Of a stretch of 40,523 bases of DNA, positions 950 through 36,598 are shown one piece after another. Source of the stretch: a virus; the IMG/VR virus record IMGVR_UViG_3300024518_000012. One strand, written 5' to 3'. Below the pieces are notes generated by a model. That model saw nothing but the letters and a program-made list of their open reading frames with translations. It was not told the origin of the DNA and made no database searches. Each line of letters opens with the position of its first letter. Position 1 is the first letter of the stretch. A program made the position numbers and the translations under genes.

Positions 950-1915
950 ATGCCACTGCCGAGTACAGTACATTTCGATCAACTCCTGACCGGGGTGATC
1001 GTGGGAGCGGAAAACACGGAACTGGTGGCCGGGGAGGTCCTGGAATCGGTCCCCTCCGCCAACCTCACCGGCAAGATCGCCAAGATGGGTGAGGACCATT
1101 TCCGGATCAACTTCGACGCCAGGCGGGCCAAGACCCCGGCTTTCGAGGTGGACTACGACGTCTCCAGCGTCTCCTTCGAGGCCCTGGAATATGCCGTGGA
1201 ATACCCCGTGGACGACCAGGACAAGGCCCAGTACGATGACCCCTTCGACGCCCTGGCGGACGGGGCCTTCGTGTGCGAGCACAAGATCATGACCCGTCTG
1301 GAGGACCTCGTGGCCACCCTCCTGACCACGGCGGCCAATTACTCCGCCGCGTCGAAGGACGCCACCTCCAGGGACTGGAACGTCCCGGCCACGGGTGTCC
1401 CGGTCTCGGACGTTTCCGTGGGGATCGAGGCCATCCAGGACAAGACGGCCCTTCCGGCCAGCATGATCCATGGGGTCTGTTCCCACAAGGTGTTCCGCTG
1501 GCTCCGCCTGAACGATGAGGTCAAGGAGTCCTATCTGGCAACGTCGCCGGGTGAGGGCAGCCTCGGAGTCATGAACAAGGAGAAGGTGGCCCTGGCCCTC
1601 GGGCTGGCCAGCCTCACGGTGGGATCGGCCATCAAGATCACCTCCAAGAAGGGCGTGACCGCTGTCAAGGCCCCGATCTGGGGAACGGACAAGTTCCTGA
1701 TCTATGGGAAGTCCGGAGGCCGGGTCAACCGCCTACGCCCGGAACTGGGCTTCATCATCCGGCCGACCATCGAGGGGTTCCCGAGCGGGATCAACGCCCT
1801 GGTGGATCGCTACCGGCGGGAGCGGATCAAGTCCGACGTGGTCAGAGCCACGGGGATGATCGACCAGGTCATCGCCAACGATCAGTTCGGTTTCCTCTAC
1901 GATGACATCCTGTAG
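950..1915 (+). CDS. Major capsid protein (HK97 fold, lambda gpE / Mu gpT-like)
   Basis: Strong RBS (GGAGGAAAGGAGAG) and a 321-aa product. It follows the protease/scaffold and DUF2190 genes and is followed by an 11-bp GC hairpin. Sequence character resembles the capsid-E family. Confidence 0.8.
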   Translation: MPLPSTVHFDQLLTGVIVGAENTELVAGEVLESVPSANLTGKIAKMGEDHFRINFDARRAKTPAFEVDYDVSSVSFEALEYAVEYPVDDQDKAQYDDPFDALADGAFVCEHKIMTRLEDLVATLLTTAANYSAASKDATSRDWNVPATGVPVSDVSVGIEAIQDKTALPASMIHGVCSHKVFRWLRLNDEVKESYLATSPGEGSLGVMNKEKVALALGLASLTVGSAIKITSKKGVTAVKAPIWGTDKFLIYGKSGGRVNRLRPELGFIIRPTIEGFPSGINALVDRYRRERIKSDVVRATGMIDQVIANDQFGFLYDDIL

Positions 1916-4210: not shown

Positions 4211-5182
4211 ATGGCCATCATTCGAATCGGGAAATCCGTTGTGGGGATCAAGCCGGAGACCGTGGCCGATCACACCTACAACGAACCCGCCGCCGCCGAG
4301 GCCTTCCCGGCCTTCGATATCCAGTTCTCCCCGGACGGGGAGCTTTTCAAGAACCCCGAGGCCACGGGCCACTACGGGAAGCTGGCAGGGGTCCCGGGCG
4401 CGGGCCTGGGCCAGATCAGTTTCAAGGTAATCATGAGGGGGATGGGGAGCGTGGCGGACGTCCCGCCCCACTTCAACCAGGCCCTCATGGCCGCGGGCCT
4501 CTCGGAGACCATCACCGGGGCCACCAATGTGATCTACAAGCCCGCCTCCAGCTTCGACGGGAACGGGACCACGGGCAACCCGGCCATCTCCTACTCCGTT
4601 TGCGCCTGGCACGATGGCATCAAATACGCCATCAAGGGGGCCGCGGGGAACGTGGTATTCACCTGGACCATGGGCCAGGGCGTAGAGGCGGCCTTTACTT
4701 TCTCCGGGGCCTACGTGGACAACGAGGACGAGGCCGTCCCCACCCCGGTGACCGTGTCCAACGAGGTGGCCCCGACCTTCCTGGATGCCGGGTTCTCCGT
4801 CCTCGGGGATGAGGTCTGCATCGAGTCGTTCTCGGTGGATATGAACGGGGTCCTGGCCCGGATCGTGTGCGCCAACGATGCCAACGGGGTCAAGGGATAC
4901 GCCATCACCGACCGGACCATCCAGGGGACCATGAACCCCAACCAGGAACTGGTGGCGGACAAGGACTTCCTGGGAGAGTGGCGGGCCGGGACGGTCGGAG
5001 CCTTGCTCCACGCCGCCCTCGGGGCCGCCACGAATCAGATCACGTTCAACGCCCCGGTGGTCCAGTACGACACCCCGGGGGTCGGTGATCGAGAGGGTAT
5101 CCAGATCCTGGACATCCCCTTTTTCATCAACATCGCGGGGGCCGGGGCCGAGGGCTCCGACTTCTCGCTGACCTTCAGCTAG
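4211..5182 (+). CDS. Major tail (tube) protein
   Basis: RBS is GGAGGAGGA. The 323-aa beta-rich protein sits directly upstream of the G/GT chaperones and the tape measure, the canonical siphovirus order. Confidence 0.7.
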   Translation: MAIIRIGKSVVGIKPETVADHTYNEPAAAEAFPAFDIQFSPDGELFKNPEATGHYGKLAGVPGAGLGQISFKVIMRGMGSVADVPPHFNQALMAAGLSETITGATNVIYKPASSFDGNGTTGNPAISYSVCAWHDGIKYAIKGAAGNVVFTWTMGQGVEAAFTFSGAYVDNEDEAVPTPVTVSNEVAPTFLDAGFSVLGDEVCIESFSVDMNGVLARIVCANDANGVKGYAITDRTIQGTMNPNQELVADKDFLGEWRAGTVGALLHAALGAATNQITFNAPVVQYDTPGVGDREGIQILDIPFFINIAGAGAEGSDFSLTFS

Positions 5183-6025: not shown

Positions 6026-8380
6026 ATGGGTGAAGGTGGAAGGGTTCCGGGAGTCTTTTTCGACTTCACGGTGGACACGGATGGCCTGGACACCCTCCGC
6101 CAGTGGGAGAGCCAGTTCTCATCTGTGGGGTCTGCCGCCGAGGGGGCGGCCGGGGCCGTCACCACCTCATTTGATGGAGTAGGGGCGTCCGTCGAGGGGG
6201 CCGGGGACGCCGCCGAGGACGCCTCTAAGCAGATCGAGGACGCCTCGGACGCCACCAAGCAGGCCGGGGACTCCGCCGATGCCACCACGTCCAAAATGGA
6301 CGCCTTGGGGCAGGCCGGGGAGGAGCTCGGCGGGCCCTTCGGTCGGTTGGTCCGGACCTTCCAGAATGCCAAGAAGTCCCTGGCATCCGTCAAGGCCGCC
6401 TCCGCCTCCGCCGGGATCTCTCTCAAGACCCTGGCCGTCGTGGCCGTCGGGGCCGCCGCCGCCGTGGTCGGGATCGTGGTGGCCGTCAAGGCTGCCCGGG
6501 CTGCCATGGCGGGCCTGGCGAAGTTCACCGCGGATTCCACCATCAAGGCCGGGGCCTACCGGGCGGAGGTGGCCAACTTGGCCGCCACCCTCAAGGGCCT
6601 GGGGATCAACACCGACGAGACCAGAAACTCCATGCTGGACTACGCCGATGAGATCGCCATTGCAACGAACCTAACGAGGGAGCAGGCCAGGGCGGCCCAG
6701 GTCCTCGGGCTGAATATGGGGGCCTCCGCGGAACAGGTCAATGACCTGGCCCTGGCGGCGGCCAATATGGCGGCGGCCAACCCGCTTATCGAGTCCGCGG
6801 ACCAGGCTATCCGACAGATCGCCAAGACCCTCGGAGGTATGTCCGGAGAGATCGGGGAATTGATCCCCGAAGTGGTCGAACTGACGGCCGAGGAGCGGAA
6901 ACAGGGAATCGTAATTGACCTGATAAACGAGAAGTACGCCGGTTTGGCGGTGGCCCTCGGCCGGACACTCCCGGCCGCCATCCAGGAAACTCAGGATTCA
7001 TTCGACAGCCTCCAGGAGGCCATCGGCGGGCCGTTCTCCGAGGTCCTGGAGATCCTCCTAAACGAGGGAATCAACCCCCTGATTCGGGAGTTCACCACCG
7101 CCACCGAGGGGGCGGACCTGTTCCGTGTGGCCGTGTTCCGCCTCGGGATCGCCATGGCCAGGGAGGCCGAGAAGGCCGTGGCCCTTGGCCAGGGGATAGC
7201 CCTCCTGGGTGTCCTCATGAGGCAGGCCGGGGCCAACGAGACCCTGGCGGCCCTCAACTCTGTCCGGGATAGGCTCCAGGCGATCCAGATCGAGATGGCG
7301 GCCATAGCGGTCCTCGGGCCGGACTTCCTGGCCAGTAGCCTCGGGGAGGGTGATACCCCCGAGCCTCCGGCACCCACGGAGGCGGCCCCGGCCCTGGGCT
7401 TTGGCCTGGATGAGATCATCAAGGGCCCGGCCGAGCTTGCCAAGTTCTCCGAGGCCATAAGCCGGGCCGCGGCGGACGTCAAGGAGCTTGGTCTGGACCA
7501 GGCGGATGTCACCATTGTTGGAAAACAACTCATAGATACCATCACGGATCAGATCCGGGAATACCAGGACCTGGGATTCGAGACCTCTGCGGCGGACGAG
7601 GCCCTCCAGGCCTTCATGGAGACGCTACAGGTCTACGCCACGGACGTAGGCCTACTAGCCACCCAGGCCACCGCCAGCCATTTCCAGACCGTCATGGCCC
7701 TCAGGGAGGAACTGACCCTCCTCCAGGAGCAGGGCTTCGAGATCACGGATGTCATGCTGGACCAGGCAGACGCCATCGCAGAGACTGCATCCCAGATGGA
7801 GCTCTACGCCCAGGGTGCAGAACTGGCCGTGGGGGTCTCCCATGACCTGGCGGCGGCCTTTGTCCAGCAGGCCTTGGCCAGCGAGAAGTCCGGCAAGAAT
7901 GCGGTGAAGGCCGGGAAGCTCATAATCTCCGCGGTCCTCAAAACCGTGGCCCAGATCGCCACAATCAAGGCCACCGAGTCTATAGCCACCGGGCTCCTGG
8001 CCCTGGCCCAGAAGGACTATGCCGGGGCCGCCGCCGCCTTCGGGGCCGCGGTCCTGTGGGGCACGTTGGCCGGGGCCGCCTCTGGTGCAGCCGCCGCCGT
8101 GGCCTCCAGCGAGTCGGAGCCGGAACGTCCGGCGGTGGTCACCCAGCAAGAGCAGGCTGGACCCCGGCCGGTGTCCGGTAGCACAGGGGCCGGGTCGGCC
8201 ATCCCCGAGGGCTCGATCCTGGTTAACCAGACGGGACAGGAATTCCAACCGGCCGCCACCGCCTCGACCATCATTATCCAGGCCTTCGATGCCCAGAGCG
8301 TACTGGACAAGATCGAGACAGATTCAGACTTCAGAGAGGCCCTGGGGGTGGCCCAGGCTATCGAGTTCCAGGAGGCCTGA
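6026..8380 (+). CDS. Tail tape measure protein (784 aa)
   Basis: Long Ala/Glu/Leu-rich helical protein with hydrophobic segments (e.g. LAVVAVGAAAAVVGIVVAV). It lies directly after the G/GT chaperones. Confidence 0.9.
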   Translation: MGEGGRVPGVFFDFTVDTDGLDTLRQWESQFSSVGSAAEGAAGAVTTSFDGVGASVEGAGDAAEDASKQIEDASDATKQAGDSADATTSKMDALGQAGEELGGPFGRLVRTFQNAKKSLASVKAASASAGISLKTLAVVAVGAAAAVVGIVVAVKAARAAMAGLAKFTADSTIKAGAYRAEVANLAATLKGLGINTDETRNSMLDYADEIAIATNLTREQARAAQVLGLNMGASAEQVNDLALAAANMAAANPLIESADQAIRQIAKTLGGMSGEIGELIPEVVELTAEERKQGIVIDLINEKYAGLAVALGRTLPAAIQETQDSFDSLQEAIGGPFSEVLEILLNEGINPLIREFTTATEGADLFRVAVFRLGIAMAREAEKAVALGQGIALLGVLMRQAGANETLAALNSVRDRLQAIQIEMAAIAVLGPDFLASSLGEGDTPEPPAPTEAAPALGFGLDEIIKGPAELAKFSEAISRAAADVKELGLDQADVTIVGKQLIDTITDQIREYQDLGFETSAADEALQAFMETLQVYATDVGLLATQATASHFQTVMALREELTLLQEQGFEITDVMLDQADAIAETASQMELYAQGAELAVGVSHDLAAAFVQQALASEKSGKNAVKAGKLIISAVLKTVAQIATIKATESIATGLLALAQKDYAGAAAAFGAAVLWGTLAGAASGAAAAVASSESEPERPAVVTQQEQAGPRPVSGSTGAGSAIPEGSILVNQTGQEFQPAATASTIIIQAFDAQSVLDKIETDSDFREALGVAQAIEFQEA

Positions 8381-8382
8381 CC

Positions 8383-8754
8383 ATGGCTGGAGTTCTGACA
8401 CCGAGCCTTCGGACGCTGGGGTTCTCCCATGCCGTCCCCTTTCCACAGACCGAGTCCGACTTCCAGGTGGTCCGGGAGCGGTTCCCGACCGGGGAATCCC
8501 AGGCATGGATCAACGGGGCCGGGGTGGAGCTTCGAGCCTGGAGCCTCCCCTATGGCCTGACCAAGGCCAACTTCCTGACCCTCAAGGCCTTCTGGGATGC
8601 CAGACAGGGGGAGTACGAGGTCCATTACTGGGACGATCCCTTTAGCGGGGAGGATGACATCAAGGTGGCCTTTAGCCCTGGCCAACAGCCCAGATGGAAC
8701 CGGCGGTGGGTCAACTGGGGTGAGGTAACCCTGACAATTATCGAGGTGGCCTGA
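8383..8754 (+). CDS. Minor tail protein (lambda gpM-like by position, 123 aa)
   Basis: First gene after the tape measure. RBS is CAGGAGG. Size and position match gpM-type distal tail proteins. Confidence 0.5.
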   Translation: MAGVLTPSLRTLGFSHAVPFPQTESDFQVVRERFPTGESQAWINGAGVELRAWSLPYGLTKANFLTLKAFWDARQGEYEVHYWDDPFSGEDDIKVAFSPGQQPRWNRRWVNWGEVTLTIIEVA

Positions 8755-8757
8755 CCT

Positions 8758-11700
8758 ATGCCCAGAGAGACCCTCGACGCGGCCATTGTGACCGCCATTA
8801 GGGCGGCCCAGGCTGGTCAGTTCAACCAACTGGTTCGGATCAAGGATCCACTGGGAGGGACAACCGGGGAGCTTTCCGCCTCCGGAGTGGACAGCTACGC
8901 TCCCAGGACCCAGGGGGCGGACAAAGAGTGGGGCCTCGGGGCCTTCACCTGGGACGGTGGACCCATCGAGGCCAAGGTCCTGGAGAGGTCGGACGTCCGA
9001 TTCCGCGCCGACGGAGAGGGGGAGGTGACCCTGACCATCCTGGCGGCGGACTCCACCACCCCGAATCCTCAGTCCTTCATCGCCGCCGACGTGGTCCTCC
9101 TGGTGGTCCAGCCTGGCACGTCCAACGAGGGGGCGATATTCCGAGGCCGTGTCTCCCAGGCTGGCTCTGGGAAGGGAGACGTTGGGACCATCAAGCTCCG
9201 CTGTAGGGGATACCTCTCCTCGGCCTCGGACTCGATCCCCAAGTGGAACACCGGGGCCCTGTGTCAGTTGAAGTTCCGGGGGGCGAAGTGTGCCCACACC
9301 AGCATGGCCACGGCCTCGGCCAGTGGCCCAGGGAAGTCCCACACCGTGGACGACACCTCCAACATGGTGGCGGGCCGGTTCGTGATCGGTGACCCCAACG
9401 GGACGCCACACCCCGTGGAGATCGACACCGTAGACACGGGGACCACCTGGACCAGTGTGGAGGATACCGAGTTCCAGGCGGCCGATCCGGTGGCGTATGG
9501 GGACTGTGACCGGACGTTCCAAGACTGTGTCCTTAGGCTCCAGACCCACCGGTACAATGGCTTCCGCGGGGTCCTCCTGATCGTGGACTCCACGAGTCCG
9601 ATAGACTTCGGCCAACCGCCCCTGTCAGACAACCCCGTGACCTGGAACCCCGGGGAGGCCAAGCCGGACGTTCCCCTCCCGGTCAATTACCAGATCGAGC
9701 AATACACCGGGGCGATCAACCCATCCGCGGAACTATCCGTGGGTGAACAGGAGATTTTCGAGGAGAACCCGGTCCCCTACTGTTACGGCCGGGTGACCGT
9801 GCCCCTGGTCCCCGTGGAGCGCCACCTCCTCCTGGCCAACCCAGGTGTCCCCGACGAGGATCGGGAGTATGCCGTGGGGTTCTACGTGATCGGGGCGGGC
9901 CCCATCGAGGACATCCGGCGAGTATTCACTAAGGAGAGGATCGTCAAGAATGACGACGGATTCGGTGGTGAGTCGATCAACGGGGACGAGGCCTACTGGA
10001 GGGACGGGAGCCTAGGGGTGGACTCCGAATACGTCCTAGCCGACTGGCAGGCCGACCGCCTGGTGGCCGCCTCCGCCGCCAACGACCGGGCCATGAAGCT
10101 CACCATCCAGGAACGGGACTTCATGTCCAACACCGGGACCACCTACTCCGGGGCGGCCATGCTGAAGTTCCTGATCCCCATCGGGAACGGCCAGGGGACT
10201 GTCTCCGTGGAGGGGCCGGACGACCTCCCGGACCTGTTCGCGGACATCGAGGGCCGCCTGGTCCAGGCCTACACCTCCCTGGGGGCCACGGACGGGGCCG
10301 CCGCCTGGACCAATGGCCGGAACCCCGTCTGGGCCCTCCTGGACGCCCTCCTGGACACCGACCTGGCCGGGGTCCCCTCGGACCTCATCAAGTGGGCCGA
10401 CTGGAAAACCGCTGCCGACAAGTGTGCGGTCCTGATCCAGAATGACGGGATGAAGACAGCCATCCGGACCACGATGGGGACGCCTCTGGAGGTCATCCCG
10501 GTGGACGGCCTCGACGGGATAGCCCCCGGGGACACCCTCCACCTACCGGGCCCCACCACCAGGGTGGCCGAGTTCACCGACCTTACCGGGGCCCAGATAT
10601 TCCTGGACTCCGCCATTCAGTTGACAGCGGGGGACGTGGTCCAGGCGGAGAGGCCCAGGTATACATTCAACTATGTAATGCGGCGGCGGACCAAGCTCTC
10701 CTCGTTCATCAAGATTGCCCTCTCGTCCTGTAATGCCCACCTCTACATGGACGGGGAGGTCCTCGGGATCAGGGTCATGGATGGAATCTTCAACGGGGAC
10801 CCGGGGATCCTGTCCACGGACGCCGGAAGATTGATGCCCAGGTTCCTCCGGAACACCTTCAGGCTGGACCGGGGGGTGGCCTTCAGCCGCCAGCATAACG
10901 TGGTAGAGGCCCGCTACAACCGGGGCAATACCATGCTGAACAAGAAAGGCCAACTCACCGTCGTGGATGCCGATGCCGGGGGCCATGACATCCCGAAACG
11001 GACCAAGCTGGACTTTCCCGCGGTGAACACCTCGGAGCAGGCCCTTAGGTGTTGCCTCGGCAGGATGTCCCGGTTGATGCCACTGGAGAACGGAGAGGGC
11101 CAGAACGATAAGGGGGCCTCCCCGTTCCGCGGAAAGACCCTGATAAACGGCCTTGAACTGGCAATCGGGGACTATTTCGATGCCGTGGAGGACATCACCC
11201 TACCTGGCGGGCCCACCATCGCGGCCCCGAATGCCCTCCCCGACCTGGAGGCCTGGGTCAGGCCGGACTTCGGGATCACCGGGGACCCGGAGGTGACCGC
11301 CTGGGAGATGAAGGCCGGGGCCGCCGCGGCCTCGATCTACACCAGGGCCGGGACCGGGCCCCAGTTGAAAAAGAACATTGCCGCTATCGGGGGCCACGAT
11401 GCCGTGGAGCTCGATCTGGCTGGACGGACACTGACCACTGGGGACAGCCTGGAGATCGCTGGGGCCTGGACCATCGCGGCCGTCTACAGGACGGACGGGT
11501 CCACCTCCGCGTCCGTCTACCCTATCGGCGGGACAGGTGCCAGCAATTCCGTCGGAGTCCAGGCCCCGGGCCATGACGATCCCACCTCTGGCGGGGTCTA
11601 CTATGACGACGTCCCGGCCACCATCTCGAAGGACTTCAACAACGAGACCAGCGAGGTGACGGATTACCATATCGCCATCTGGCGGCGGGACGGGACCGGG

Positions 11701-13116
11701 GACCACTGGTATTTCCACGATGGCGTGGACCAGACCCTGGATGACCCGGTTCCTGGCCGGTACAACAACAACACCGACCCGATGAAGTTCAACGCCCTCC
11801 TACAACTGACAGGGGACTTCTCGGGGGCCGTCGGTGGCCGCCTGGTGGACGGGTGTGTCCACTCCGGGTTCCTGTCCGATGACGACCAGGACGCCCTCTA
11901 TAACTACTTCGCGGACCGCTACGGGTTCTCCCTCCTGGGTGGAGCGGGGGACAAGCTGGTCCGTGTCCGTGGCCGGGTGGACGGGATCAAGATCAAGCAG
12001 GACCTCTCGGTGGAGTTCTCCTGTAAAGGGGAGCGGGAGAGGATCCGCCTGGACGCCTTCGGGCCAGCCGTCCTGCCGTTCTCGGACAACCCCTACGGGT
12101 CGGCCAGCGCTGCCGTGAGGGCCCCGGGTGGGAATGCCTGGCCCCTGGCCTACCCCGGCCTGGTGATCTCGATAGTGGAGGTCGAGGGCTTCCGGGTGGA
12201 GTGCGCCATCGTCACCTCAGGATTCGATGCAAACAACACGGCCAGGGACGTCCTCCGTCGTGGGTTCTTCGAGCTTCACGCCTCCAATACCAGCGGATTC
12301 ACCCCCGAGGTAGGAAACTCCTCCGAAACCTTCGTGATGAACGTAGGGGCCTGGCATCGGTCCTTTATCTGGCAGGTTCCGGACAAATACCTGGAGGCCA
12401 CCATCTATGCCAAGCTGGTCCTCCGTGGGTTCTCGGACGCCCCGGTGACCTCCAACGAGCTCGAAATCCAGGCCACCAGGGCGATAGACCCGGACAACCG
12501 GAACCCGGACACGGTCCAGACAGAGGGCCTGATCTTCAGCGAGGTGACGGATGGGGACTTCCAGGGGGATCCGTTCTACTGGCAGGTGACCGGTGGGGCC
12601 TCTATGGGGTCCAACGTCATGACCCTGACCGCCGCCGGGGACACCTTCAAGCGTGGGTTCCCGTTCGTCCAGCAGAGATCCACCGGGGTGTGGCTCCCCA
12701 CCGGGGACCCCGTGGTGGTCCGTGTGGCCCTCCGTGGGGTCTCCGCGGTCCCGGCCGGGGAGATCCGGATCTACCTCAGGGACACGATCTCGACCACGGA
12801 GTGGACCCTGATCCAGGTCCAGGTGGCTGACATCCTGAACGGGACATTCAGACACTACACCCAGAAGTCCACGTTCGTGGATGACATCGGCGGGACCCTG
12901 GAGATCAAGGGAGAGTATCTGGCCGGCGGGGTGACGGACGTCGAGGTGGACAAGCTCATGGTCCACTTCGGAGCCCTTCACTCCGTGTTCCGCCTGACCC
13001 GGGAGGAGGCGGAGTCCGGCTACCGGCCAGACTGGACGACCGTTCCCCAGGCTGGCCACTTCGACCGGGCCCTCTGGACAACCGGACAATACAAGATAGC
13101 GGAGGTCCTACCGTGA
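8758..13116 (+). CDS. Tail tip / host-specificity protein: gpL-like (DUF2163/BR0599) N-terminus fused to a gpJ-like central fibre protein (1452 aa)
   Basis: Four-Cys motif C-QLKFRG-AK-C ... GD-C-DRTFQD-C-x11-NGFRG (nt about 9262-9570) mirrors lambda gpL C-TWTYRG-DE-C ... KDK-C-SKCLSG-C-KFRNNVGNFGGF. The downstream segment GRNPVWALLDALLD...ADWKTAADKC resembles the gpJ / Phage-tail_3 signature. A lectin/LamG-like region lies near nt 11400-11750. Confidence 0.75.
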   Translation: MPRETLDAAIVTAIRAAQAGQFNQLVRIKDPLGGTTGELSASGVDSYAPRTQGADKEWGLGAFTWDGGPIEAKVLERSDVRFRADGEGEVTLTILAADSTTPNPQSFIAADVVLLVVQPGTSNEGAIFRGRVSQAGSGKGDVGTIKLRCRGYLSSASDSIPKWNTGALCQLKFRGAKCAHTSMATASASGPGKSHTVDDTSNMVAGRFVIGDPNGTPHPVEIDTVDTGTTWTSVEDTEFQAADPVAYGDCDRTFQDCVLRLQTHRYNGFRGVLLIVDSTSPIDFGQPPLSDNPVTWNPGEAKPDVPLPVNYQIEQYTGAINPSAELSVGEQEIFEENPVPYCYGRVTVPLVPVERHLLLANPGVPDEDREYAVGFYVIGAGPIEDIRRVFTKERIVKNDDGFGGESINGDEAYWRDGSLGVDSEYVLADWQADRLVAASAANDRAMKLTIQERDFMSNTGTTYSGAAMLKFLIPIGNGQGTVSVEGPDDLPDLFADIEGRLVQAYTSLGATDGAAAWTNGRNPVWALLDALLDTDLAGVPSDLIKWADWKTAADKCAVLIQNDGMKTAIRTTMGTPLEVIPVDGLDGIAPGDTLHLPGPTTRVAEFTDLTGAQIFLDSAIQLTAGDVVQAERPRYTFNYVMRRRTKLSSFIKIALSSCNAHLYMDGEVLGIRVMDGIFNGDPGILSTDAGRLMPRFLRNTFRLDRGVAFSRQHNVVEARYNRGNTMLNKKGQLTVVDADAGGHDIPKRTKLDFPAVNTSEQALRCCLGRMSRLMPLENGEGQNDKGASPFRGKTLINGLELAIGDYFDAVEDITLPGGPTIAAPNALPDLEAWVRPDFGITGDPEVTAWEMKAGAAAASIYTRAGTGPQLKKNIAAIGGHDAVELDLAGRTLTTGDSLEIAGAWTIAAVYRTDGSTSASVYPIGGTGASNSVGVQAPGHDDPTSGGVYYDDVPATISKDFNNETSEVTDYHIAIWRRDGTGDHWYFHDGVDQTLDDPVPGRYNNNTDPMKFNALLQLTGDFSGAVGGRLVDGCVHSGFLSDDDQDALYNYFADRYGFSLLGGAGDKLVRVRGRVDGIKIKQDLSVEFSCKGERERIRLDAFGPAVLPFSDNPYGSASAAVRAPGGNAWPLAYPGLVISIVEVEGFRVECAIVTSGFDANNTARDVLRRGFFELHASNTSGFTPEVGNSSETFVMNVGAWHRSFIWQVPDKYLEATIYAKLVLRGFSDAPVTSNELEIQATRAIDPDNRNPDTVQTEGLIFSEVTDGDFQGDPFYWQVTGGASMGSNVMTLTAAGDTFKRGFPFVQQRSTGVWLPTGDPVVVRVALRGVSAVPAGEIRIYLRDTISTTEWTLIQVQVADILNGTFRHYTQKSTFVDDIGGTLEIKGEYLAGGVTDVEVDKLMVHFGALHSVFRLTREEAESGYRPDWTTVPQAGHFDRALWTTGQYKIAEVLP

Positions 13117-16100
13117 AACAGATACTGACCCTCCTGGCCCTGGTGTCCCTCCTGGGCCCAGCCATGGCCCAGCAACCCATCGAGTCGATAACCTTCGAGT
13201 TCCCCGTGGCCGGATTGACGACATGCGACCCCCACACCCAGCGGAACAAGCAGCATTTCACCGACCTCTGGCAGATCACCTGCGACCGGTCCACCAGCGT
13301 CTGGGCCGTTGTAGGTGACCGCCACGACCTCAGGGCCTACGGGGCGATCCCGGACGATGCCACCACGGACGCCGCCGCCATCCAACGGGCCTTTGTCGGG
13401 GCGGCCGGGGGCGGGACCATCGTGGCGGCCGGTGGGGAATACGAGCTTGACGCCACAGTCCAGGCCACCCTGGCCACGGCCGAGGACCTCCCCGGTGTCC
13501 GCCTGGAGTGTAGCGGGACCCTCGGGTCCACGTTCACCTGGACAGGGGCGGCAGACGGGATCATGTTCCAGCCCACCGTGGCCCTCGGGACCAAGTCCTA
13601 CAACCTCACCGTGGAGGGGTGCAAGTTCCAGACGGACGCCGCCACCCACGGGGTGACCGCCTGGGACCTCTCCTCGGTGGGGAATGCCAGGTTCGTCCGG
13701 AACACCTTCGAGGAGGTGGAGATCGGGCTCTATCTCCTGTCCTCCATCACCCAGGCGGTGACCGGGGCCTACCTCTCCGAGAATACCTTCCTGGGGGACG
13801 GGAACGATTGCGCCGCCGATGGCGGGGACAATGACGAATGCGACACCGGAATATACCTGGGCCGGTTCAACGACGGGGCGGACATCGTGGACACCCTGGC
13901 CGATGGCCTGGACATCGGGATACACAACTACCGGGCCAACAGGACCAGGATCATGGGAGGCACGGTCCAGAACAACGATGACGGGATTTTGGTGGACAAC
14001 GATGGGGTGGCGCTCACCGCGGTGGACGTCTCGATAGTCCGGGTCCACCAGAGCCTAAACACCAACGGAGTGCACATTGTGGACTCCCGGCGGACAGCGG
14101 TCATCGGCCCCGATATGGACGTCCTGGTGGACTGTGACGAGACAGTGTGTGTCCCGATCATCAACCCCGGAGGGGTCACCGGCTTGGCTGACCGGGTCCC
14201 CTACACCGACGGATTTGGGGACACCCTCACCGATTCCAGCCTTGGGTTCGATGACGCCGCGGACACCCTCCTGGCCGAGAAGATCCTCCTGGACAATGGT
14301 GGGTCAGTCCCCCAGATCCAGACCGGGGGCGGGAACTGGTCAAGCTCCACGATTAGCAGCAACCCCGGGGGGATCTCGACCCTGACCAACTTCGTGGCCG
14401 GGACGACAGACGGCCAGTCCGTCGGATTCAACCTGGGAGTTTCAGACACGGACGACCCGGCGGATCCTCTCTTCAACTTCCCGAGGGCCAAGTTCTTCCT
14501 GACGGACAACACCTCGTCCTCCGGGGTCTTTGGTCTCTGGGGAACTGGTGCGATCAATATCCCGGCTTTCGAGGTCGGAATCGGTTTGAATCGGTTCCTC
14601 AGGATCGAGCCCGGCGGGGAGGTAACTCTGGACGATTACCCGGACTGCGGGGTCATAAGTTCGGACGGGTCCGGGCAGTTATTGTGTGGGTCTCCACTCC
14701 TGAACGGGGCGGTCAACGAGACGGTGGACCTGGACGTGACCGTGGACACCGGGGACGTCCTGGCCACCATCGAGGCCGATCTCGGTGGGGACCTGACCTT
14801 CTATTTCGGGGGTGTGACCTACACCCTGGACTGTACCCCGGTAACCACGAATTGCCAGATCACCCTCACCGAGGGGACGGACACCAGCCCAACCCTCAAT
14901 TACCTATATGTGACCGAGGCCGCGGGGGTCCTGACCTTCACCAGTTCCACCTCGGACTGGCCCGCCACCTCCCACGCCCCGATTGCCACTGCCCTGATCC
15001 AGACGGACGCCTCGGTGACGGCCAACGGGGCCTATAAGGTCCACGCATGGACGGACCACGTCTCCACGTCCACGGAGAACGGCCACCTGTCCCACCTGAA
15101 TCGGAAGTTCAGGACACAACACGCCACCTGGGACAGCGGAACGGCGGCCAATACCCTCACGATCTCCAACCCGGACGCCTGGATCGACACGGACGCCGGG
15201 GAGGTCTACCAGCTACACCTCCACGACATGCCAGCCCTCGACATGGCGGTGGCCCCGTTCTTCGTTGTCAACGAGCCCGGGACGCCCTTCATGGAGGCGG
15301 ACAGCCTGGCGGACATCACCCAGGACGCCAGCAGTGTGACATGGGGAAACAACAAGTATGGAAATCTCGTGGTGGTCGGGGTGGTCTCGGAGGATGCCGG
15401 AGACTCCCAGGGCCTGATAAACCTCCCGACCTCCACCTATACCCTGGAGTCGGACGCCCTGATTGACGCCGAAGCCACCAGCGTCTACACCATCCCGGCG
15501 GACTTCGTGGGGACCGGGTTCCTCATCGCCAGGTATACGGTCAGGAAAACCGTTTCCGGCTGGACCCAGTCCGGGATAGATGACCTCCGCGGGGACACAC
15601 CCTCCACGGCCCCGGGGTCCGGCGGTGGGGGTGGCTGGATAGTCTCGGACGGGCCCAACTCCCAGACCATCTCCCCGGGTGAAATCCTGGACTTTGTAGG
15701 ACAGACGGATGTCATGGACACCCTGGTCTCGGTCCCGGGGAATACCAGGGTCCTGATTAGCCTGAAGGACACCGCGGTTACCCCGGCCGAATACGCCACC
15801 CCGATCTTGACGGTGGACCAGCAGGGGAGACTTACGGCCATCGAGGACGGTGGGTCCCAGTTCTCTCTCCGGTGGGAGTTCACAAGCGACGATTCGAGCA
15901 CGTGCACGGGGGTTACCGGGGTTCCTGGCCGGTTCGATTACAATAGCGCCACCGTGTCCTCGGTGACCCTGATCTGTTACAACCACGACATGGAGAACGG
16001 GGCCGACGTTGGGGGCGTCCTGGAGACCTTCGGGGACACAGACACCATAGTTCTCCAGCAGATTGACGACCCGACCAAGTGGGCCGTTTTCAAGATCACG

Positions 16101-17105
16101 GCGGATCCTATCCCGGCCTTCGGGGACGCCTGGCAGTTCACGGTCACACACGAGGACTCCTCGGGAACCTTCGACAACGGGGAGGTGGTGGGGTCCGCGT
16201 TCTTCTCGGGGAACAGTGTGGGGGGCGGAGGTGGCTCCCCAGCCCATCCTGGGTCCGACGGGGACATCCAGTGGTCCACCGGGGTGGGTGGGGCCACGGA
16301 CTCCGAGGCGGCCTTCAACTATGACGACACGGCGAACACGCTCCTCGTCGGTACGGTGACCGCCGAGGCCATCACCAATGAGGGCCCACTCTTGACCGTG
16401 GGCGATGGCGTGGACGAGGATCTAAAGATCAACTTCGACAGGCAGGCCTCCGGTGGTGACCCGTTCGTGGCGTGGAATGAGACGAACGACAATCTGGAGA
16501 TAGACGTGGGTTCGGCCGTCCAAGACAACTTTGTTTACAATCTCGACATACTCCTCCCCCACCATGGCGCGGTCCAGGTCTACTCCGGGGGGGCGAGGGG
16601 TGGAACGATCCGGCCCATGGTCCGGATGATCGCGGAGGGGGCCACGGAGGCCCTGGCAAATCCCCCATGGTTGGAATTCGACAACACCAACGGCACAGGG
16701 AATGAAGTCTGGAACATGCGGCCCGAGAACTCTGACCAGTTCGTCCTCTACGAGGGGACTGCCGGGGATGCCGTGGCCTTCGACACCGGGGAGGACGCTG
16801 CACTATTCGAGATGGCCATGGCCTCGAAGGCGGCCCAGGCCCTGTCCGAGCCTGACACCACCCCCAGCATCAAGGGCGGGAACGTGTTCACGGTCCCGGC
16901 GAGCTCCTCGGACTTCATCACCGACCTGGACGATTACGCCACCAGTGGGTCTCAGCCGGTGTGGCTGATCTTCCTGGGTGGCTCCGCCACGGTAGACTGT
17001 AACGGTCCGACCATCTATTGCAACGGTGGGGGGACCTACAGCCCAGCGGCGAATGATTCCATGCAATGCGTCGAGGCCTCGGATATCTGGTATTGTCACT
17101 ATTGA
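13113..17105 (+). CDS. 1330-aa beta-helix (pectate-lyase-3-like) tailspike/fibre-like protein with a Sec-type N-terminal signal peptide
   Basis: GTG start lies 7 nt after GGAGG, with a GTGA overlap. N-terminus is MKQILTLLALVSLLGPAMA|QQ. The segment HDLRAYGAIPDDATTDAAAIQRAF...GGTIVAAGGEYEL is typical of the start of a depolymerase beta-helix. Poly-Gly linkers and a ...ILTVDQQGRLTAI fibre-repeat-like motif are present. Confidence 0.7.
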   Translation: MKQILTLLALVSLLGPAMAQQPIESITFEFPVAGLTTCDPHTQRNKQHFTDLWQITCDRSTSVWAVVGDRHDLRAYGAIPDDATTDAAAIQRAFVGAAGGGTIVAAGGEYELDATVQATLATAEDLPGVRLECSGTLGSTFTWTGAADGIMFQPTVALGTKSYNLTVEGCKFQTDAATHGVTAWDLSSVGNARFVRNTFEEVEIGLYLLSSITQAVTGAYLSENTFLGDGNDCAADGGDNDECDTGIYLGRFNDGADIVDTLADGLDIGIHNYRANRTRIMGGTVQNNDDGILVDNDGVALTAVDVSIVRVHQSLNTNGVHIVDSRRTAVIGPDMDVLVDCDETVCVPIINPGGVTGLADRVPYTDGFGDTLTDSSLGFDDAADTLLAEKILLDNGGSVPQIQTGGGNWSSSTISSNPGGISTLTNFVAGTTDGQSVGFNLGVSDTDDPADPLFNFPRAKFFLTDNTSSSGVFGLWGTGAINIPAFEVGIGLNRFLRIEPGGEVTLDDYPDCGVISSDGSGQLLCGSPLLNGAVNETVDLDVTVDTGDVLATIEADLGGDLTFYFGGVTYTLDCTPVTTNCQITLTEGTDTSPTLNYLYVTEAAGVLTFTSSTSDWPATSHAPIATALIQTDASVTANGAYKVHAWTDHVSTSTENGHLSHLNRKFRTQHATWDSGTAANTLTISNPDAWIDTDAGEVYQLHLHDMPALDMAVAPFFVVNEPGTPFMEADSLADITQDASSVTWGNNKYGNLVVVGVVSEDAGDSQGLINLPTSTYTLESDALIDAEATSVYTIPADFVGTGFLIARYTVRKTVSGWTQSGIDDLRGDTPSTAPGSGGGGGWIVSDGPNSQTISPGEILDFVGQTDVMDTLVSVPGNTRVLISLKDTAVTPAEYATPILTVDQQGRLTAIEDGGSQFSLRWEFTSDDSSTCTGVTGVPGRFDYNSATVSSVTLICYNHDMENGADVGGVLETFGDTDTIVLQQIDDPTKWAVFKITADPIPAFGDAWQFTVTHEDSSGTFDNGEVVGSAFFSGNSVGGGGGSPAHPGSDGDIQWSTGVGGATDSEAAFNYDDTANTLLVGTVTAEAITNEGPLLTVGDGVDEDLKINFDRQASGGDPFVAWNETNDNLEIDVGSAVQDNFVYNLDILLPHHGAVQVYSGGARGGTIRPMVRMIAEGATEALANPPWLEFDNTNGTGNEVWNMRPENSDQFVLYEGTAGDAVAFDTGEDAALFEMAMASKAAQALSEPDTTPSIKGGNVFTVPASSSDFITDLDDYATSGSQPVWLIFLGGSATVDCNGPTIYCNGGGTYSPAANDSMQCVEASDIWYCHY

Positions 17106-17116
17106 GGGGGTGACCG

Positions 17117-17515
17117 GTGAGAGCTCTAGCCACTGCGATGGTCTGCTTGCTGGCTGTCACGTGTGTGATGGCCGAGCCCGCCAAAATCGTGATTGTCCAC
17201 CCGGACGTGGACAAGCACGATCCATTCGAGGATCCACCGGGCCACCTGAACCTCGGGACGGATCCCCTTACACAGGAGGCAATCGACGGACTCCTGGACG
17301 GAACCTTCTGGAAGGTACGATATCGTAGGTCAACCGCACCCTACCAGGATGCCTCTCTTAACCTGAAGGAATGCGGAACGGCCGTCTATAGGATCTGTTC
17401 GGACTTCGACCAGACGGAGACCCTTGGGTCGGTGGCCAGGTTCCGTGGATCTGGGTGTGAGGGGGTCTGCTCTCCGATCAAGTTCAAGGTCAGGGTCAAG
17501 GAGGCCACCCCGTGA
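17117..17515 (+). CDS. Secreted hypothetical protein (132 aa)
   Basis: GTG start follows GAGGGGGTGA. Signal peptide is MRALATAMVCLLAVTCVMA|EP. Confidence 0.6.
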   Translation: MRALATAMVCLLAVTCVMAEPAKIVIVHPDVDKHDPFEDPPGHLNLGTDPLTQEAIDGLLDGTFWKVRYRRSTAPYQDASLNLKECGTAVYRICSDFDQTETLGSVARFRGSGCEGVCSPIKFKVRVKEATP

Positions 17516-17829
17516 ACGACAGGAGAGACCAGAACCTATTTCTATTGGTCGGCCTGATCCTCCTGGTCCTCCTGGTCTCCTGCCAGGCCGAGGCCCCTGG
17601 TCCAGATGAGGCCCTCTGCCCCTGCCCCCACTTCCCGGAGATCATGGTCCCCTGTCATGAGGGGTTTGACGACTGCCCGGACGGGAGTGGCGGGGACCCC
17701 TGTACCTGCCCTGACGGGACGGTGATCGACTGCGATCTGTTCCATTGCCCCTGTCCCGTCTGCCCTACCTGCCCAGAGGGCCCCACATTCGAGCAGGGGC
17801 CCCAGGGGTCCCAGGAGAGTGACCAATGA
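17512..17829 (+). CDS. Cys/Pro-rich lipoprotein (o-spanin candidate, 105 aa)
   Basis: GTGA overlap and RBS AAGGAGG. The hydrophobic leader ends in the lipobox L-V-S-C. The mature part carries CPCP / CTCP / CPCPVCPTCP motifs. Confidence 0.6.
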   Translation: MNDRRDQNLFLLVGLILLVLLVSCQAEAPGPDEALCPCPHFPEIMVPCHEGFDDCPDGSGGDPCTCPDGTVIDCDLFHCPCPVCPTCPEGPTFEQGPQGSQESDQ

Positions 17830-18011
17830 AAAGATTCCTTAGAAAACGGCTGACCACCCTCGTCCTTACCGGGATCGCGGTCCCGTTCCTCCAGAAGTGG
17901 GGAGTCCCGGAGGACACGATCCAGTGGCTGATCGGGGCGGTGGGAGCTTGGATGATCTCCCAGGGCTGGTCCGACGGGAAGGCCATCGAGAACGGGAACA
18001 AAAAGGACTGA
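17826..18011 (+). CDS. Holin-like small membrane protein (61 aa)
   Basis: ATGA overlap. Two hydrophobic segments (LTTLVLTGIAVPFL, WLIGAVGAWMISQGW) and a charged C-terminal tail (NGNKKD). Confidence 0.5.
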   Translation: MKRFLRKRLTTLVLTGIAVPFLQKWGVPEDTIQWLIGAVGAWMISQGWSDGKAIENGNKKD

Positions 18012-18015
18012 AGCC

Positions 18016-18261
18016 ATGGCGAACCAGGGAGTAGACTCTGGGATCCTCCATAAGGCCTCTCTCCTGGCCGTGGGTGGCCTGGCTTGTTTCCTGGCCCTCC
18101 AGGTATGGCTCCAGCATGGAGAGATCGTAGCCCTCCACGAGAGGGTCCTGGTCCGGAAGGAAATCCAGGAGGAGATCCAGAAGGCCATCAAGGCCGAGGG
18201 GGAGTCCATCCGGGAACTGATCCGGACCATTCACTCCGGGGCCGCCCCGACAGGAGGCTGA
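18016..18261 (+). CDS. N-terminally anchored coiled-coil protein (i-spanin or antiholin candidate, 81 aa)
   Basis: One TM segment (ASLLAVGGLACFLALQVWL) followed by a charged helical region. Confidence 0.45.
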   Translation: MANQGVDSGILHKASLLAVGGLACFLALQVWLQHGEIVALHERVLVRKEIQEEIQKAIKAEGESIRELIRTIHSGAAPTGG

Positions 18262-18263
18262 CC

Positions 18264-18566
18264 ATGGAAAGACCGGCCCCTCCAGAAAACATCGTTGTAC
18301 TATGGCTGGCCATCGGGTTACTGGTGGCCTTCGGTGTTGTCACCGTGGCGGGAATCGTCCAGGCTGGTGTGGGTGGCGGGACATGCTCCTACAAGCTCCA
18401 TGTAGCCACGGCCTCCATGGCCCTGGCGGTCCATCGTATCGGGCCAGACAACCAGGACGAGGGGGCCAGGGACGCCGCCAGGGCCCTCCAGGTGGGTCTG
18501 GGGGAGTCCGGGCTGGAGTGTCGCTGGATCGAGGGGGCGGCCCCTCCTGAGTTCGCCTGCCGCTAG
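18264..18566 (+). CDS. Membrane-anchored hypothetical protein (100 aa)
   Basis: ATG lies 6 nt after CAGGAGG. TM segment is IVVLWLAIGLLVAFGVVTVAGIV. The start is trimmed from track ORF 18084..18566. Confidence 0.55.
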   Translation: MERPAPPENIVVLWLAIGLLVAFGVVTVAGIVQAGVGGGTCSYKLHVATASMALAVHRIGPDNQDEGARDAARALQVGLGESGLECRWIEGAAPPEFACR

Positions 18567-26790: not shown

Positions 26791-27162
26791 ATGACGGACT
26801 TCATCACCAGCGTTCCATTTATCACCGGGGCGGCCTTTGGTGTCGTCCTGGTCCTGATCCTCTCGGCCGTTATCGCCCGGCTGGAGAAGAGGACCACAAT
26901 CCACCACGTTGGAACCTGGGAGCCCATGACGGGGGCGTCCTACCCCGGGAAGAACCGGCCGGAGTCCATGGGTCACAACCTGACCACGGCCCAACTGGAG
27001 GACCTGGTGGACGACCTGGCCCGGATGGGTGGGGCGGACCGCCGGAGCCCTGACCGGACGGACCTGGACCATGTCTGGGACGATTGCTCACACTGCGGCC
27101 GGAGATTCTGCTCCACCTGTTCCGGCGGACTTCACGAGGACCTGTGTCCCGATTGCCAATGA
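26791..27162 (+). CDS. Membrane-anchored protein with a C-terminal zinc ribbon (123 aa)
   Basis: N-terminal TM segment is FITGAAFGVVLVLILSAVIA. The C-terminus is CSHCGRRFCSTCSGGLHEDLCPDC. Confidence 0.65.
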   Translation: MTDFITSVPFITGAAFGVVLVLILSAVIARLEKRTTIHHVGTWEPMTGASYPGKNRPESMGHNLTTAQLEDLVDDLARMGGADRRSPDRTDLDHVWDDCSHCGRRFCSTCSGGLHEDLCPDCQ

Positions 27163-27179
27163 TGAGGAGACCCCCAGCC

Positions 27180-27728
27180 ATGAGAACGAAGATATGCCAC
27201 CCAATCACCGGGGAGCCGCCACCCCGAGGATATGACAGCCTGAACCTGATCCGGATCGGAGGCTCCACCGGGAAGGTGGGGTCCTTCGGGATGACCCGGA
27301 ACAGTGGCCAGAAGGCCCACAAGGGGGTGGACTACCTGTGTATCCCGGGGCGTCCCGTGTTCTGTCCCATGGACGGGACGGTGGCCAGGGCCGGGTTTCA
27401 GGATCCGTCCGACCCGTGTCGGGGCCACGGCCTCCGGGTCTACATCAAACACGAGACCGAGGCCCACGGGCTCCTGGTCTCCTGTTTCTCCCACCTGTCC
27501 GCCCTGGAGATCCACCGGACCTTCGGGACTGAGCTCGTCCGTGGTCAGATCGTAGGCTGGACCGGACGGACCGGGAACGTCTCGGACAACGTCCCGAGTC
27601 ATCTACACTGGGAATTGTGGATGAGTCGGGAGGTCAACGGGACCCCGGTGGACCCCGAGAGGTTCATGGCCGAGGGGACCCTCCTGGGCATGGACGGTCG
27701 ATTCGTCATCCCGGACGAGGTGGCGTGA
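27180..27728 (+). CDS. Peptidase M23 (LytM-type) peptidoglycan endopeptidase, endolysin candidate (182 aa)
   Basis: Motifs HKGVDY ... PVFCPMDGTV ... GLRVYIKH ... FSHL ... GQIVGWTGRTG ... SHLHWEL. ATG lies 10 nt after GAGGAG. An alternative ATGA-coupled start is at 27159. Confidence 0.85.
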   Translation: MRTKICHPITGEPPPRGYDSLNLIRIGGSTGKVGSFGMTRNSGQKAHKGVDYLCIPGRPVFCPMDGTVARAGFQDPSDPCRGHGLRVYIKHETEAHGLLVSCFSHLSALEIHRTFGTELVRGQIVGWTGRTGNVSDNVPSHLHWELWMSREVNGTPVDPERFMAEGTLLGMDGRFVIPDEVA

Positions 27729-29165: not shown

Positions 29166-29911
29166 AAGCCTCCACCCTCTACAAGATCGAGAACGGCCTG
29201 GAGCGAATCGGGGACGGGTTCAGGGCCATGGCCAGGGCCATCCGGGAGGAGGCCAAGGGCCAGGAAGCCCTGGAGCAGGAGATCACCGCCAGCATGGCCA
29301 GGGGGTCCCGTGGATTTGGGCCGAGCCCCCTGGTCAAGGCCTGGTCCGACAGGAAGGCGGAGAGGGAGGCCGAGGAGGCTGGCCAACGGGTGGCGGAGAT
29401 CATGACCAAGGACCTGGCCGAGGCCTCCAAGGCCCAGAAGGTCACGGCTTGGACCAAGGCCTGGATCGAGAGGTTCCCCAGGTGGTGGGCCTTCTACCCC
29501 AGGAAAGAGAAGAAACGGCGGGCCGAGGCTTTCTGGGTCAAGCTGGGGACCAGGCTCCGCCGCCTGGGCCTGAACGAGCCCGAGGCCTTCGAGGCTGTCC
29601 TGTGGCTGACCTTGTCCAGGGCCGCGGAGTGGAAGGTGGACGGCCGGGAGCGGAAAACCATCCCCCATCCCTCCTCGTTCATCAACTCCGAGGCCTTCGA
29701 GGACTACACCGCGGTGGCCAGGGGGGACACCCGGGCCAGCCTCTCCGAGAGTGCCGAGCCTGGGGCCGATGTCAGGACGACTCCCCAGGAGGGTACAATC
29801 GAGCGGGACGAGGACGAGGCCACGGCGGCCATGGCCCTCGGGATGACCCCGGATGAGTTCTCGGAGTACCGGATCAAGGCCCTTGCCGACAGGGCCAGGA
29901 GGACACCATGA
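29162..29911 (+). CDS. Hypothetical early protein, possible replication-module protein (249 aa)
   Basis: ATGA overlap. The motif W-x-F-YPRK-x-KK-x-x-AE-x-x-W ... IPHPSSFIN-x-E-x-FED resembles a motif I recall from phage replication-region proteins. The family name is not certain. Confidence 0.4.
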   Translation: MKASTLYKIENGLERIGDGFRAMARAIREEAKGQEALEQEITASMARGSRGFGPSPLVKAWSDRKAEREAEEAGQRVAEIMTKDLAEASKAQKVTAWTKAWIERFPRWWAFYPRKEKKRRAEAFWVKLGTRLRRLGLNEPEAFEAVLWLTLSRAAEWKVDGRERKTIPHPSSFINSEAFEDYTAVARGDTRASLSESAEPGADVRTTPQEGTIERDEDEATAAMALGMTPDEFSEYRIKALADRARRTP

Positions 29912-34664: not shown

Positions 34665-35053
34665 TGCTATGCCAGTATCGAGACATTCTGAACATGGCCG
34701 ACGAGTGCGGAAGGGGTGACGCCCTATGGTTTGACGAGAACGGTGTCCCCCGGTTCTGCGACTTCCACCCCACCCGCCTGGCGGACATCTACGCCAGGAC
34801 TGCGATCCTCTGCCGGGTGGCCTGCCAGTCCTGTGGGAAAACCTTCATGATGGCCCAGAGCAAGGGACAACTGGAGAGGGTCAACGGGGCCTGGATGGAG
34901 GCCAAGCCATTCCCCACCGACCCTGACCTGATCGCCTTCGGTGACCCTCCATGTTGGGGGTGTAGCGGAGCCACCATGTCCTCGGACACCGTGAAGATCG
35001 TCCAGCGGTGGGCCTACGGGAAGGGCTACAAGTGGGAGAGGGTGGGTCTGTGA
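34664..35053 (+). CDS. Cys-rich hypothetical protein (129 aa)
   Basis: TAATG overlap preceded by AAGGAGGAAAGCC. 9 Cys, including CQSCGK and CWGCSG. Confidence 0.55.
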   Translation: MLCQYRDILNMADECGRGDALWFDENGVPRFCDFHPTRLADIYARTAILCRVACQSCGKTFMMAQSKGQLERVNGAWMEAKPFPTDPDLIAFGDPPCWGCSGATMSSDTVKIVQRWAYGKGYKWERVGL

Positions 35054-36594: not shown

Positions 36595-36598
36595 ACCC

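Follow-up and report, generated by a model that had tools for sequence, protein, structure and literature searches.

A fibre-type protein with a predicted Sec signal peptide at the end of the late tail operon of a siphophage

The IMG/VR virus record IMGVR_UViG_3300024518_000012, analysed here as a single window of 40,523 nt, carries at positions 13113–17105 a gene for a protein of 1330 amino acids (aa), referred to below as the target. By its sequence the target is a modular fibre-type protein. Its first 19 residues resemble a cleavable signal peptide for the Sec pathway and signal peptidase I (SPase I), and the case that they form a genuine signal is strengthened by the results that follow. 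The explanation favoured, held with slightly better than even confidence, is that the target is a late, Sec-exported, fibre-like protein that would be oxidized in the periplasm and released at lysis. Four independent lines favour real export: the cysteines of the target are paired, its neighbours appear to be exported, signal peptides recur on homologues in other phages, and cysteine pairing tracks the signal among those homologues. An exported fibre-type protein clashes topologically with virion assembly in the cytoplasm. This conflict was first raised by a reading of the letters alone (the sequence-only reading), and it stands, supported by the start codon, the cysteine pairs, a run of six envelope-targeted genes and the recurrence. 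The features needed first are the following.

13113 to 17105, plus strand: whole target open reading frame (ORF), 1330 aa and stop; GTG start, overlapping the TGA of the J-like gene as GTGA.
13101 to 13105, plus strand: Shine–Dalgarno sequence GGAGG, with a 7-nt spacer before GTG 13113.
13113 to 13169, plus strand: signal peptide, residues 1–19, MKQILTLLALVSLLGPAMA; predicted SPase I cut at A19/Q20 (rule-based).
8758 to 13116, plus strand: J-like central tail-tip protein of 1452 aa; weak phrog_31 match; translationally coupled to the target ORF.

The N-terminus of the target reads MKQILTLLALVSLLGPAMA/QQPIES. K2 lies in the n-region and is followed by a Leu-rich core of 11–12 residues (I4–L14), with a 10-residue Kyte–Doolittle mean of 2.80. 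The c-region, G15-P16-A17-M18-A19/Q20, has a Gly-Pro break, Ala in positions −3 and −1, and a residue other than Pro at +1. Residues 1–19 agree with a type I (Sec/SPase I) signal in charge, core length and c-region alike, as judged by a rule set that is deliberately strict (it recognizes only 4/7 classic E. coli and Erwinia leaders). A six-frame reading of the window gives 246 ORFs of 60 aa or more, and only five satisfy this strict rule. Three of the five are real genes, at 13113, 17117 and 17826. The rate at which a chance ORF extension yields a complete signal peptide is about 1% on the same rule-based scale. The basic n-region, hydrophobic core and AxA site described in the sequence-only reading are all borne out. 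Other signal classes were considered and rejected. There is no lipobox for a lipoprotein (SPase II) signal, the first Cys being residue 38, and the leader has no twin arginine (RR) for the twin-arginine translocation (Tat) pathway. A signal-anchor-release (SAR) domain is an uncleaved, Gly/Ala/Ser-rich transmembrane domain (TMD) of about 18–20 residues, whereas the core here is 11–12 residues long, Leu-rich rather than Gly/Ala-rich, and accompanied by an AxA site.

The start codon is equally well defined. GGAGG followed by about 7 nt is the arrangement typical of this genome, preceding also the genes at 8383, 8758, 17512, 18264, 29908, 4211 and 5265. No comparable Shine–Dalgarno motif lies upstream of the in-frame alternatives GTG 13143 and ATG 13164. 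The GC content at third codon positions (GC3) is 0.82 over the first 17 codons, against 0.35 in one of the two other frames, and 0.83 over the whole target ORF. The JGI gene caller chose the identical start, GTG 13113. The earlier claims of a well-supported GTG start, of GGAGG 7 nt before it with GTGA coupling, and of high third-position GC in the leader therefore all hold. No promoter-like or terminator-like sites were found flanking the target gene. Taken with the lack of a promoter or terminator between the two genes, the GTGA overlap marks the target as a late gene whose translation is coupled to that of a structural gene.

These data bear directly on the idea that the signal is an artefact of annotation, the true start lying downstream or the ORF being a frameshift fusion with the J-like protein, and hence no signal existing. 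GTG starts are less common and the ORF does overlap the upstream stop, but the Shine–Dalgarno sequence is typical of the genome and correctly spaced, GC3 is high from codon 1, complete signals arise by chance at the low rate given above, and the feature recurs in homologues. No slippery heptamer precedes the overlap of the J-like and target genes; its absence and the strong Shine–Dalgarno sequence are the grounds on which the frameshift fusion was rejected. As a whole, an artefact is hardly credible.

The N-terminus might alternatively remain uncleaved, as a membrane tether or as a buried structural helix of a cytoplasmic fibre. The position of the gene in the tail module would suit such an arrangement, and among the neighbours of homologues elsewhere there are longer, anchor-like cores, such as that of a 590-aa protein in locus L008. 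However, a core of 11–12 residues falls short of the length of a transmembrane span. The helix-breaking G-P and the A-x-A come after it, it is Leu-rich and not SAR-like, and the paired cysteines described below indicate an oxidizing compartment. The uncleaved hydrophobic anchor listed among the options of the sequence-only reading is accordingly disfavoured, and we regard it as quite improbable. The same low standing is given to a scheme of two isoforms, in which the product of GTG 13113 is exported and a product of ATG 13164 (M18), beginning MAQQPIES..., stays in the cytoplasm and is built into tails. The in-frame ATG falls within the c-region and only two residues short of the predicted cut, which would make the M18 product nearly identical to the cleaved form, and under this scheme a gene in the tail module could also yield an exported protein. 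Against it, 13164 lacks a Shine–Dalgarno sequence in a genome that uses strong ones, and no consistent internal Met occurs at the c-region of signal-bearing homologues.

The 18 cysteines of the target fall into nine sequential pairs, with partners 5–37 residues apart: 38–57, 133–170, 233–243, 341–346, 512–525, 574–581, 931–955, 1296–1303 and 1319–1328. A permutation test on the sum of the gaps within pairs gave p = 1.5e-5, and one on the largest gap 6.5e-5. Pairing of this kind is a signature, at the level of primary structure, of local disulfides formed in an oxidizing compartment. It also follows the signal among homologues. Sequential pairing at p<0.01 was seen in 3/5 testable signal-bearing homologues (4/6 with the target included), and in 3/51 signal-less homologues, one of these three having an N-terminal TMD. 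The enrichment of pairing in signal-bearing homologues favours the view that the signal is used.

Signal peptides are a recurrent property of the family. Canonical examples were found on 11 or 12 of 156 full-length homologues (about 8%), such as MKKIFILVFLLMFPISVSA/Q and MKKILTVILLLALSFNTSQA/A, and one of the 156 opens with a lipobox. Two of 11 IMG/VR loci contain a signal-bearing homologue. Each of the four signal-bearing homologues that were looked up lies in a structural module, and the phages concerned are unrelated: a phage with an HK97-type capsid, a P22-like phage, a siphovirus and an SU10-like phage. The large neighbours of these homologues often carry signals too. Signal-bearing large neighbours comprise a 915-aa Laminin_G_3 protein and a 475-aa protein in locus L006, and the 590-aa protein and a 418-aa protein in L008; L003 has signal-bearing neighbours of 158 and 338 aa. 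Compared by locus, signal-bearing large ORFs number 4/25 versus 2/49, an enrichment that is suggestive but small. A pattern visible in these three loci (L003, 6878–11083; L006, 9061–16639; L008, 2081–9661) is that three or four consecutive fibre-region proteins of 130–915 aa all have Sec-type leaders.

In the window itself, the target and the next five genes form a run of six consecutive envelope-targeted ORFs, at 13113–18566. The five small ORFs are listed below.

17117 to 17515, plus strand: 132-aa protein with its own signal peptide, MRALATAMVCLLAVTCVMA/EP, and four Cys in the mature part; GAGGGGG lies 6 nt before GTG 17117.
17512 to 18566, plus strand: four small envelope-targeted ORFs of 105, 61, 81 and 100 aa, as follows.
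Within 17512 to 18566, plus strand: 105-aa protein with lipobox LLVSC/Q, Pro/Cys-rich, o-spanin-like.
Within 17512 to 18566, plus strand: 61-aa protein with two TMDs, holin-like.
Within 17512 to 18566, plus strand: 81-aa protein with an N-terminal TMD and a coiled coil, i-spanin-like.
Within 17512 to 18566, plus strand: 100-aa protein with an N-terminal TMD.

The 132-aa gene adjoins the target at the position usual for a fibre-assembly partner (Tfa-like). None of the five small ORFs of 17117–18566 has a family match. They look like holin and spanin genes together with an exported fibre partner, closing the late operon. Five envelope-targeted genes after the target form an independent line favouring real export, and they also argue for a Gram-negative host. 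The host is most probably Gram-negative.

The sequences directly show the ORF with its start context, the features of the signal peptide, the cysteine pattern, the homology of the central domain, the exported neighbours and the recurrence elsewhere. The favoured explanation can be set out as a series of steps, in which translocation, cleavage, disulfide formation, a Gram-negative host, an activity and the way the target relates to the virion are matters that we infer. (i) Translational coupling to the J-like stop codon would allow re-initiation at GTG 13113, and the pre-protein would be made late in infection. (ii) The pre-protein would be exported by Sec to the periplasm and cut by SPase I at A19/Q20. 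(iii) Periplasmic oxidation would convert its 18 cysteines into nine local disulfides. (iv) The co-exported 132-aa protein probably acts with the target as a chaperone or partner. (v) Target and partner would accumulate outside the cytoplasm until the holin- and spanin-like genes open the envelope. (vi) The released target may then act on cell-surface or extracellular glycans, by binding or by degradation. Since a central fibre is already present in the form of the J-like protein, we lean modestly towards a target that is free or only loosely associated with virions over one that is an obligatory component of the tail. The secreted or envelope-delivered protein proposed among the options of the sequence-only reading is thus the one favoured by the signal, the cysteine pairing, the exported neighbours and the recurrence. 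That reading did not note the cysteine pattern, the exported neighbours or the conserved fibre domain in the centre of the target.

Several observations weigh against this explanation. The place of the target gene is exactly that of a side tail fibre, and its translation is coupled to that of a structural gene; this speaks for a component of the virion. As to conservation of the leader, the copies of the target gene found among assemblies are all near-identical. In L008, core structural genes are found in between the signal-bearing ones. N-proximal modules are common to signal-bearing and signal-less homologues: P0129 has ...GGGGDMSTAVYDPAGGAAQ after its leader and P0148 reads MSNSF...GGGSGDMTKAVYDPANKAAQ with no leader, and residues 27–210 of P0146 match residues 36–218 of P0126. 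Such sharing implies that leaders were gained or lost on otherwise homologous fibres, and signal-less homologues with the same modules indicate that the family evidently can fold in the cytoplasm. Overall Cys density, finally, does not differ between signal-bearing and signal-less homologues.

In a rival explanation the signal is real but the target is a true side fibre, which would fold and be oxidized in the periplasm, perhaps with help from the co-exported 132-aa protein, and would dock on finished tails only once holin lesions or lysis mix the compartments. Its gene has the place of an Stf-like gene, immediately behind the J-like gene, with translational coupling between the two. The small partner gene at the Tfa-like position bears a signal as well, and the target is built of fibre modules. 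L008 and L003 have signal-bearing proteins among core structural genes, and the common N-proximal modules fit equally. But docking after lysis would have to compete with dilution, residues 20–65 contain no recognizable docking domain, and the J-like protein may suffice for adsorption. Literature searches aimed at this question found no such case, and we know of no tailed phage that folds a virion fibre in the periplasm and then docks it. We consider a periplasm-folded side fibre unlikely. A shade more doubtful still is a broader proposal, that tailed phages possess a recurrent, so far undescribed strategy in which whole sets of fibre and host-recognition proteins pass through Sec, fold and acquire disulfides in the periplasm and join particles built in the cytoplasm only as the envelope opens. 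Virion maturation would on that proposal end during or after lysis, and the target with its 132-aa partner, like the clusters of three or four signal-bearing large proteins in L003, L006 and L008, would be instances of it.

The domain layout of the target is as follows.

13170 to 13307, plus strand: mature N-terminal segment, residues 20–65; orphan sequence with the Cys38–Cys57 pair.
13308 to 14162, plus strand: possible short right-handed beta-helix with PbH1-like repeats, residues about 66–350; cap motif LRAYGAIPDDATTDAAAIQRAF; three Cys pairs; sub-threshold matches only.
14163 to 14693, plus strand: beta-rich orphan region, residues 351–527; Cys512–Cys525 pair.
14694 to 15599, plus strand: conserved fibre domain, residues 528–829; motifs KVHAWTDH, NGHLSHLNRKFR, QLHLH and DLRG; Cys574–Cys581 pair.
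15600 to 15635, plus strand: Gly/Ser linker 1, residues 830–841, PSTAPGSGGGGG.
15636 to 16208, plus strand: middle region, residues 842–1032; fibre-repeat-like motif AVTPAEYATPILTVDQQGRLTAIEDG (888–913); Cys931–Cys955 pair.
16209 to 16262, plus strand: Gly-rich linker 2, residues 1033–1050; six-G run at 16220–16225.
16263 to 17102, plus strand: C-terminal orphan domain, residues 1051–1330; two terminal Cys pairs, 1296–1303 and 1319–1328; no family match.

The central fibre domain (residues 528–829) is the one module that homology firmly identifies. An exhaustive HMMER search of 1.8 billion representatives returned 2064 representative clusters at E<=1e-3, 1271 of them at E<=1e-30. Nearly all of the best 150 of the 2064 clusters align to residues 528–840 or thereabouts, with 40–59% identity and E values down to 1e-117. 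Among the homologues listed, many have the domain starting about 20–200 residues from the N-terminus; the target has in its place a signal peptide and an orphan region of 500 residues. The domain has no Pfam or PHROG family, a tblastn search of 50,697 cultured-phage records gave no match, and a sequence-profile search of the PDB found no relative. AlphaFold, given an alignment of 29 sequences, produced a confident, mixed and beta-rich model of the domain (predicted local distance difference test score, pLDDT, 83.5; predicted template modelling score, pTM, 0.81). Foldseek comparison of this model with the PDB gave nothing significant, the best matches being a phi812 baseplate protein (2.7e-3) and the tail fibre of cyanophage A-1(L). 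Against BFVD it gave numerous matches, with E values between 1e-13 and 1e-8, to large tail-fibre-like proteins from uncultured Caudovirales; Peptidase S74 or Mtd N-terminal domains occur in some of these. Members of the family sit in phage structural or tail-fibre modules, in loci L003, L004 and L006–L008 and in 11 IMG/VR loci. A first alignment (A1) was too diverse for the locus scan and was replaced by a second (A2). Two homologues, P0002 and P0006, contain two copies of the domain each. The conserved polar residues are D590, N596, D648, H649, H658, H661, R667, Q700, H702, N720, D738, N770, D785, R807, D824 and R826, and the set includes the HxH at QLHLH. This constellation suggests a metal- or ligand-binding site or a catalytic centre. 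As a large uncharacterized family with no Pfam or PHROG entry, the domain deserves definition in its own right.

The remaining modules are less clearly defined. Residues 881–918 of the target match 23 repeated stretches in P0087, and several homologues reach to about residues 910–977. Linker 2 is the sole polymorphic region among assemblies of the phage (G1038R, W1054Y and S1055A). In one assembly a separate 295-aa ORF is called for the gene, from a GTG at linker 2; this implies an indel near the G run, by assembly error or by slippage. The target is also unusual in composition, being very acidic (pI of about 4.05) and low in Lys and Arg (3.7% together, versus 5–14% in the other proteins checked, with the 105-aa lipobox neighbour, at 1.9%, as the exception).

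The description of the target as a beta-helix tailspike-like protein is not confirmed as it was put. Over residues 66–350 or so, a NosD match (E 6e-4; 16.7–19.7 bits versus a cut-off of 23.6) and a match to the Pect-lyase_RHGA N-cap (E 2.1) are both sub-threshold, as is that to the polysaccharide lyase PDB 9ozd, which concerns the cap motif only (E 0.31). NCBIfam gave nothing relevant, and a sequence search of the PDB with the target protein gave nothing beyond these sub-threshold matches. The proposed structure prediction of the beta-helix was run, but single-sequence AlphaFold modelling of residues 1–527 gave a pLDDT of 33.6 and the model was discarded as unusable; autocorrelation of hydrophobicity detected no periodicity of beta-helix coils. 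A word-indexed protein search returned no homologues of residues 1–527 and, for the whole target, the self match only; blastn and tblastn of the whole target against cultured phages gave no match. The beta-helix tailspike description is weakly supported. The putative beta-helix covers at most one fifth of the target, and the remainder is not beta-helix. The suggestion of a depolymerase likewise is not demonstrated, the beta-helix matches being sub-threshold and no catalytic family being matched.

The window is essentially a whole phage genome, about 40.5 kb long and 65% GC, from a complete siphophage that has nearly all its genes on the plus strand. The same contig, circularly permuted, was recovered from at least six JGI, ENA and Logan samples. 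The target gene is the final large gene of the late tail operon. The other structural genes are these.

36518 to 39118, plus strand: Mu-like portal, a Portal_Mu domain within an 866-aa protein.
950 to 1915, plus strand: head protein (major capsid protein), phrog_1005, with about 25% identity to BcepMu/phiE255 heads.
4211 to 5182, plus strand: tail tube, PF18906.
6026 to 8380, plus strand: tape measure protein.
8383 to 8754, plus strand: gpM-like protein of 123 aa, preceding the J-like gene.

A Mu-like head module, distant from BcepMu/phiE255, is combined here with a lambda-like siphovirus tail tip. Searches of viral, metagenome and genome collections with the J-like protein, major capsid protein, tail tube and N-terminal region found no relatives of the phage. 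A 528-aa ORF at 35008–36594, the position expected for the large terminase, has no Pfam or PHROG match. The sole endolysin candidate is a 214-aa metallopeptidase-like protein (27084–27728; PHROG endolysin/peptidase families, E of about 1e-10). It lies 9 kb from the spanin-like genes, amid early or replication genes; a TMD protein of 123 aa comes just before it (26791–27728 region). A 238-aa protein at 29908–30624 has an N-terminal hydrophobic segment (MTRRNKQKMTLFAVTWACLLVLGLMAVALGA...) and 14 cysteines, and is probably another exported, Cys-rich protein.

To our knowledge, folding and assembly of all tailed-phage virion parts are held to be cytoplasmic. A working Sec signal on a fibre-type protein would break with this picture, especially given its recurrence in unrelated uncultured phages, often next to further fibre-region proteins with signals. 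Two consequences are conceivable. Phages may routinely export large glycan-targeting proteins before lysis, to strip or mask receptors or to aid spread and release, or the completion of some virions may take place outside the cytoplasm. In either case, the annotation of 'tail fibres' in metagenomes would need to take localization into account. Either consequence would also account for fibres rich in disulfides and provide scaffolds for receptor binding or depolymerase activity that are secretable by nature. In the literature searched, no signal peptide is described on a tail-module fibre protein or depolymerase of a tailed phage, secretory endolysins being the only case found. The absence of such reports is not proof of novelty.

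The closest parallel in gene order is the Stf/Tfa pair of phage lambda: a big modular fibre gene follows a J-type tip gene and is itself followed by a small partner, all within a late operon. Stf and Tfa have no signal peptides and are assembled in the cytoplasm, whereas both the target and its 132-aa neighbour bear signals. Neither of the two has sequence or profile similarity to Stf or Tfa in Pfam or PHROG. Signal-bearing proteins encoded at or near host-recognition genes include lambda Lom, T5 Llp and phi80/T1 Cor, which act on the host envelope or receptor. These proteins, like morons of the Bor type, differ from the target in being small, often independently transcribed and free of fibre modules; the target has 1330 aa, is coupled to its upstream gene and lacks a promoter or terminator of its own. 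Tailspike depolymerases and secreted pectate lyases resemble the target in its possible N-terminal cap motif and PbH1-like repeats, and secreted pectate lyases have Sec signals and disulfides too. The resemblance is limited by the sub-threshold level of all matches and by the small share of the target, one fifth at most, that the helix would occupy.

Among late proteins, the subunits of Shiga toxin are exported by Sec from lambdoid operons. Sec-exported late proteins of phages also include secretory endolysins such as Lys44 of fOg44 (PMC6116005, PMC8878798). The target would share with secretory endolysins and Shiga toxin its late expression, a cleavable Sec signal, accumulation outside the cytoplasm and dependence on holin or lysis for activation or release. 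The difference is one of kind and size, between small enzymes or toxins and a 140-kDa protein of fibre type, and the endolysin candidate of this phage is encoded elsewhere. Phage-tail-fibre-like proteins that work outside the cytoplasm are found in Bdellovibrio bacteriovorus, where the MAT fibre proteins all bear signals (PMC10769870). The likeness to the target is one of description: MAT fibres are products of the predator's cellular genes, not phage late genes, and are displayed on its own surface or vesicle. They nevertheless provide a precedent for Sec-exported, phage-fibre-like proteins that fold outside the cytoplasm.

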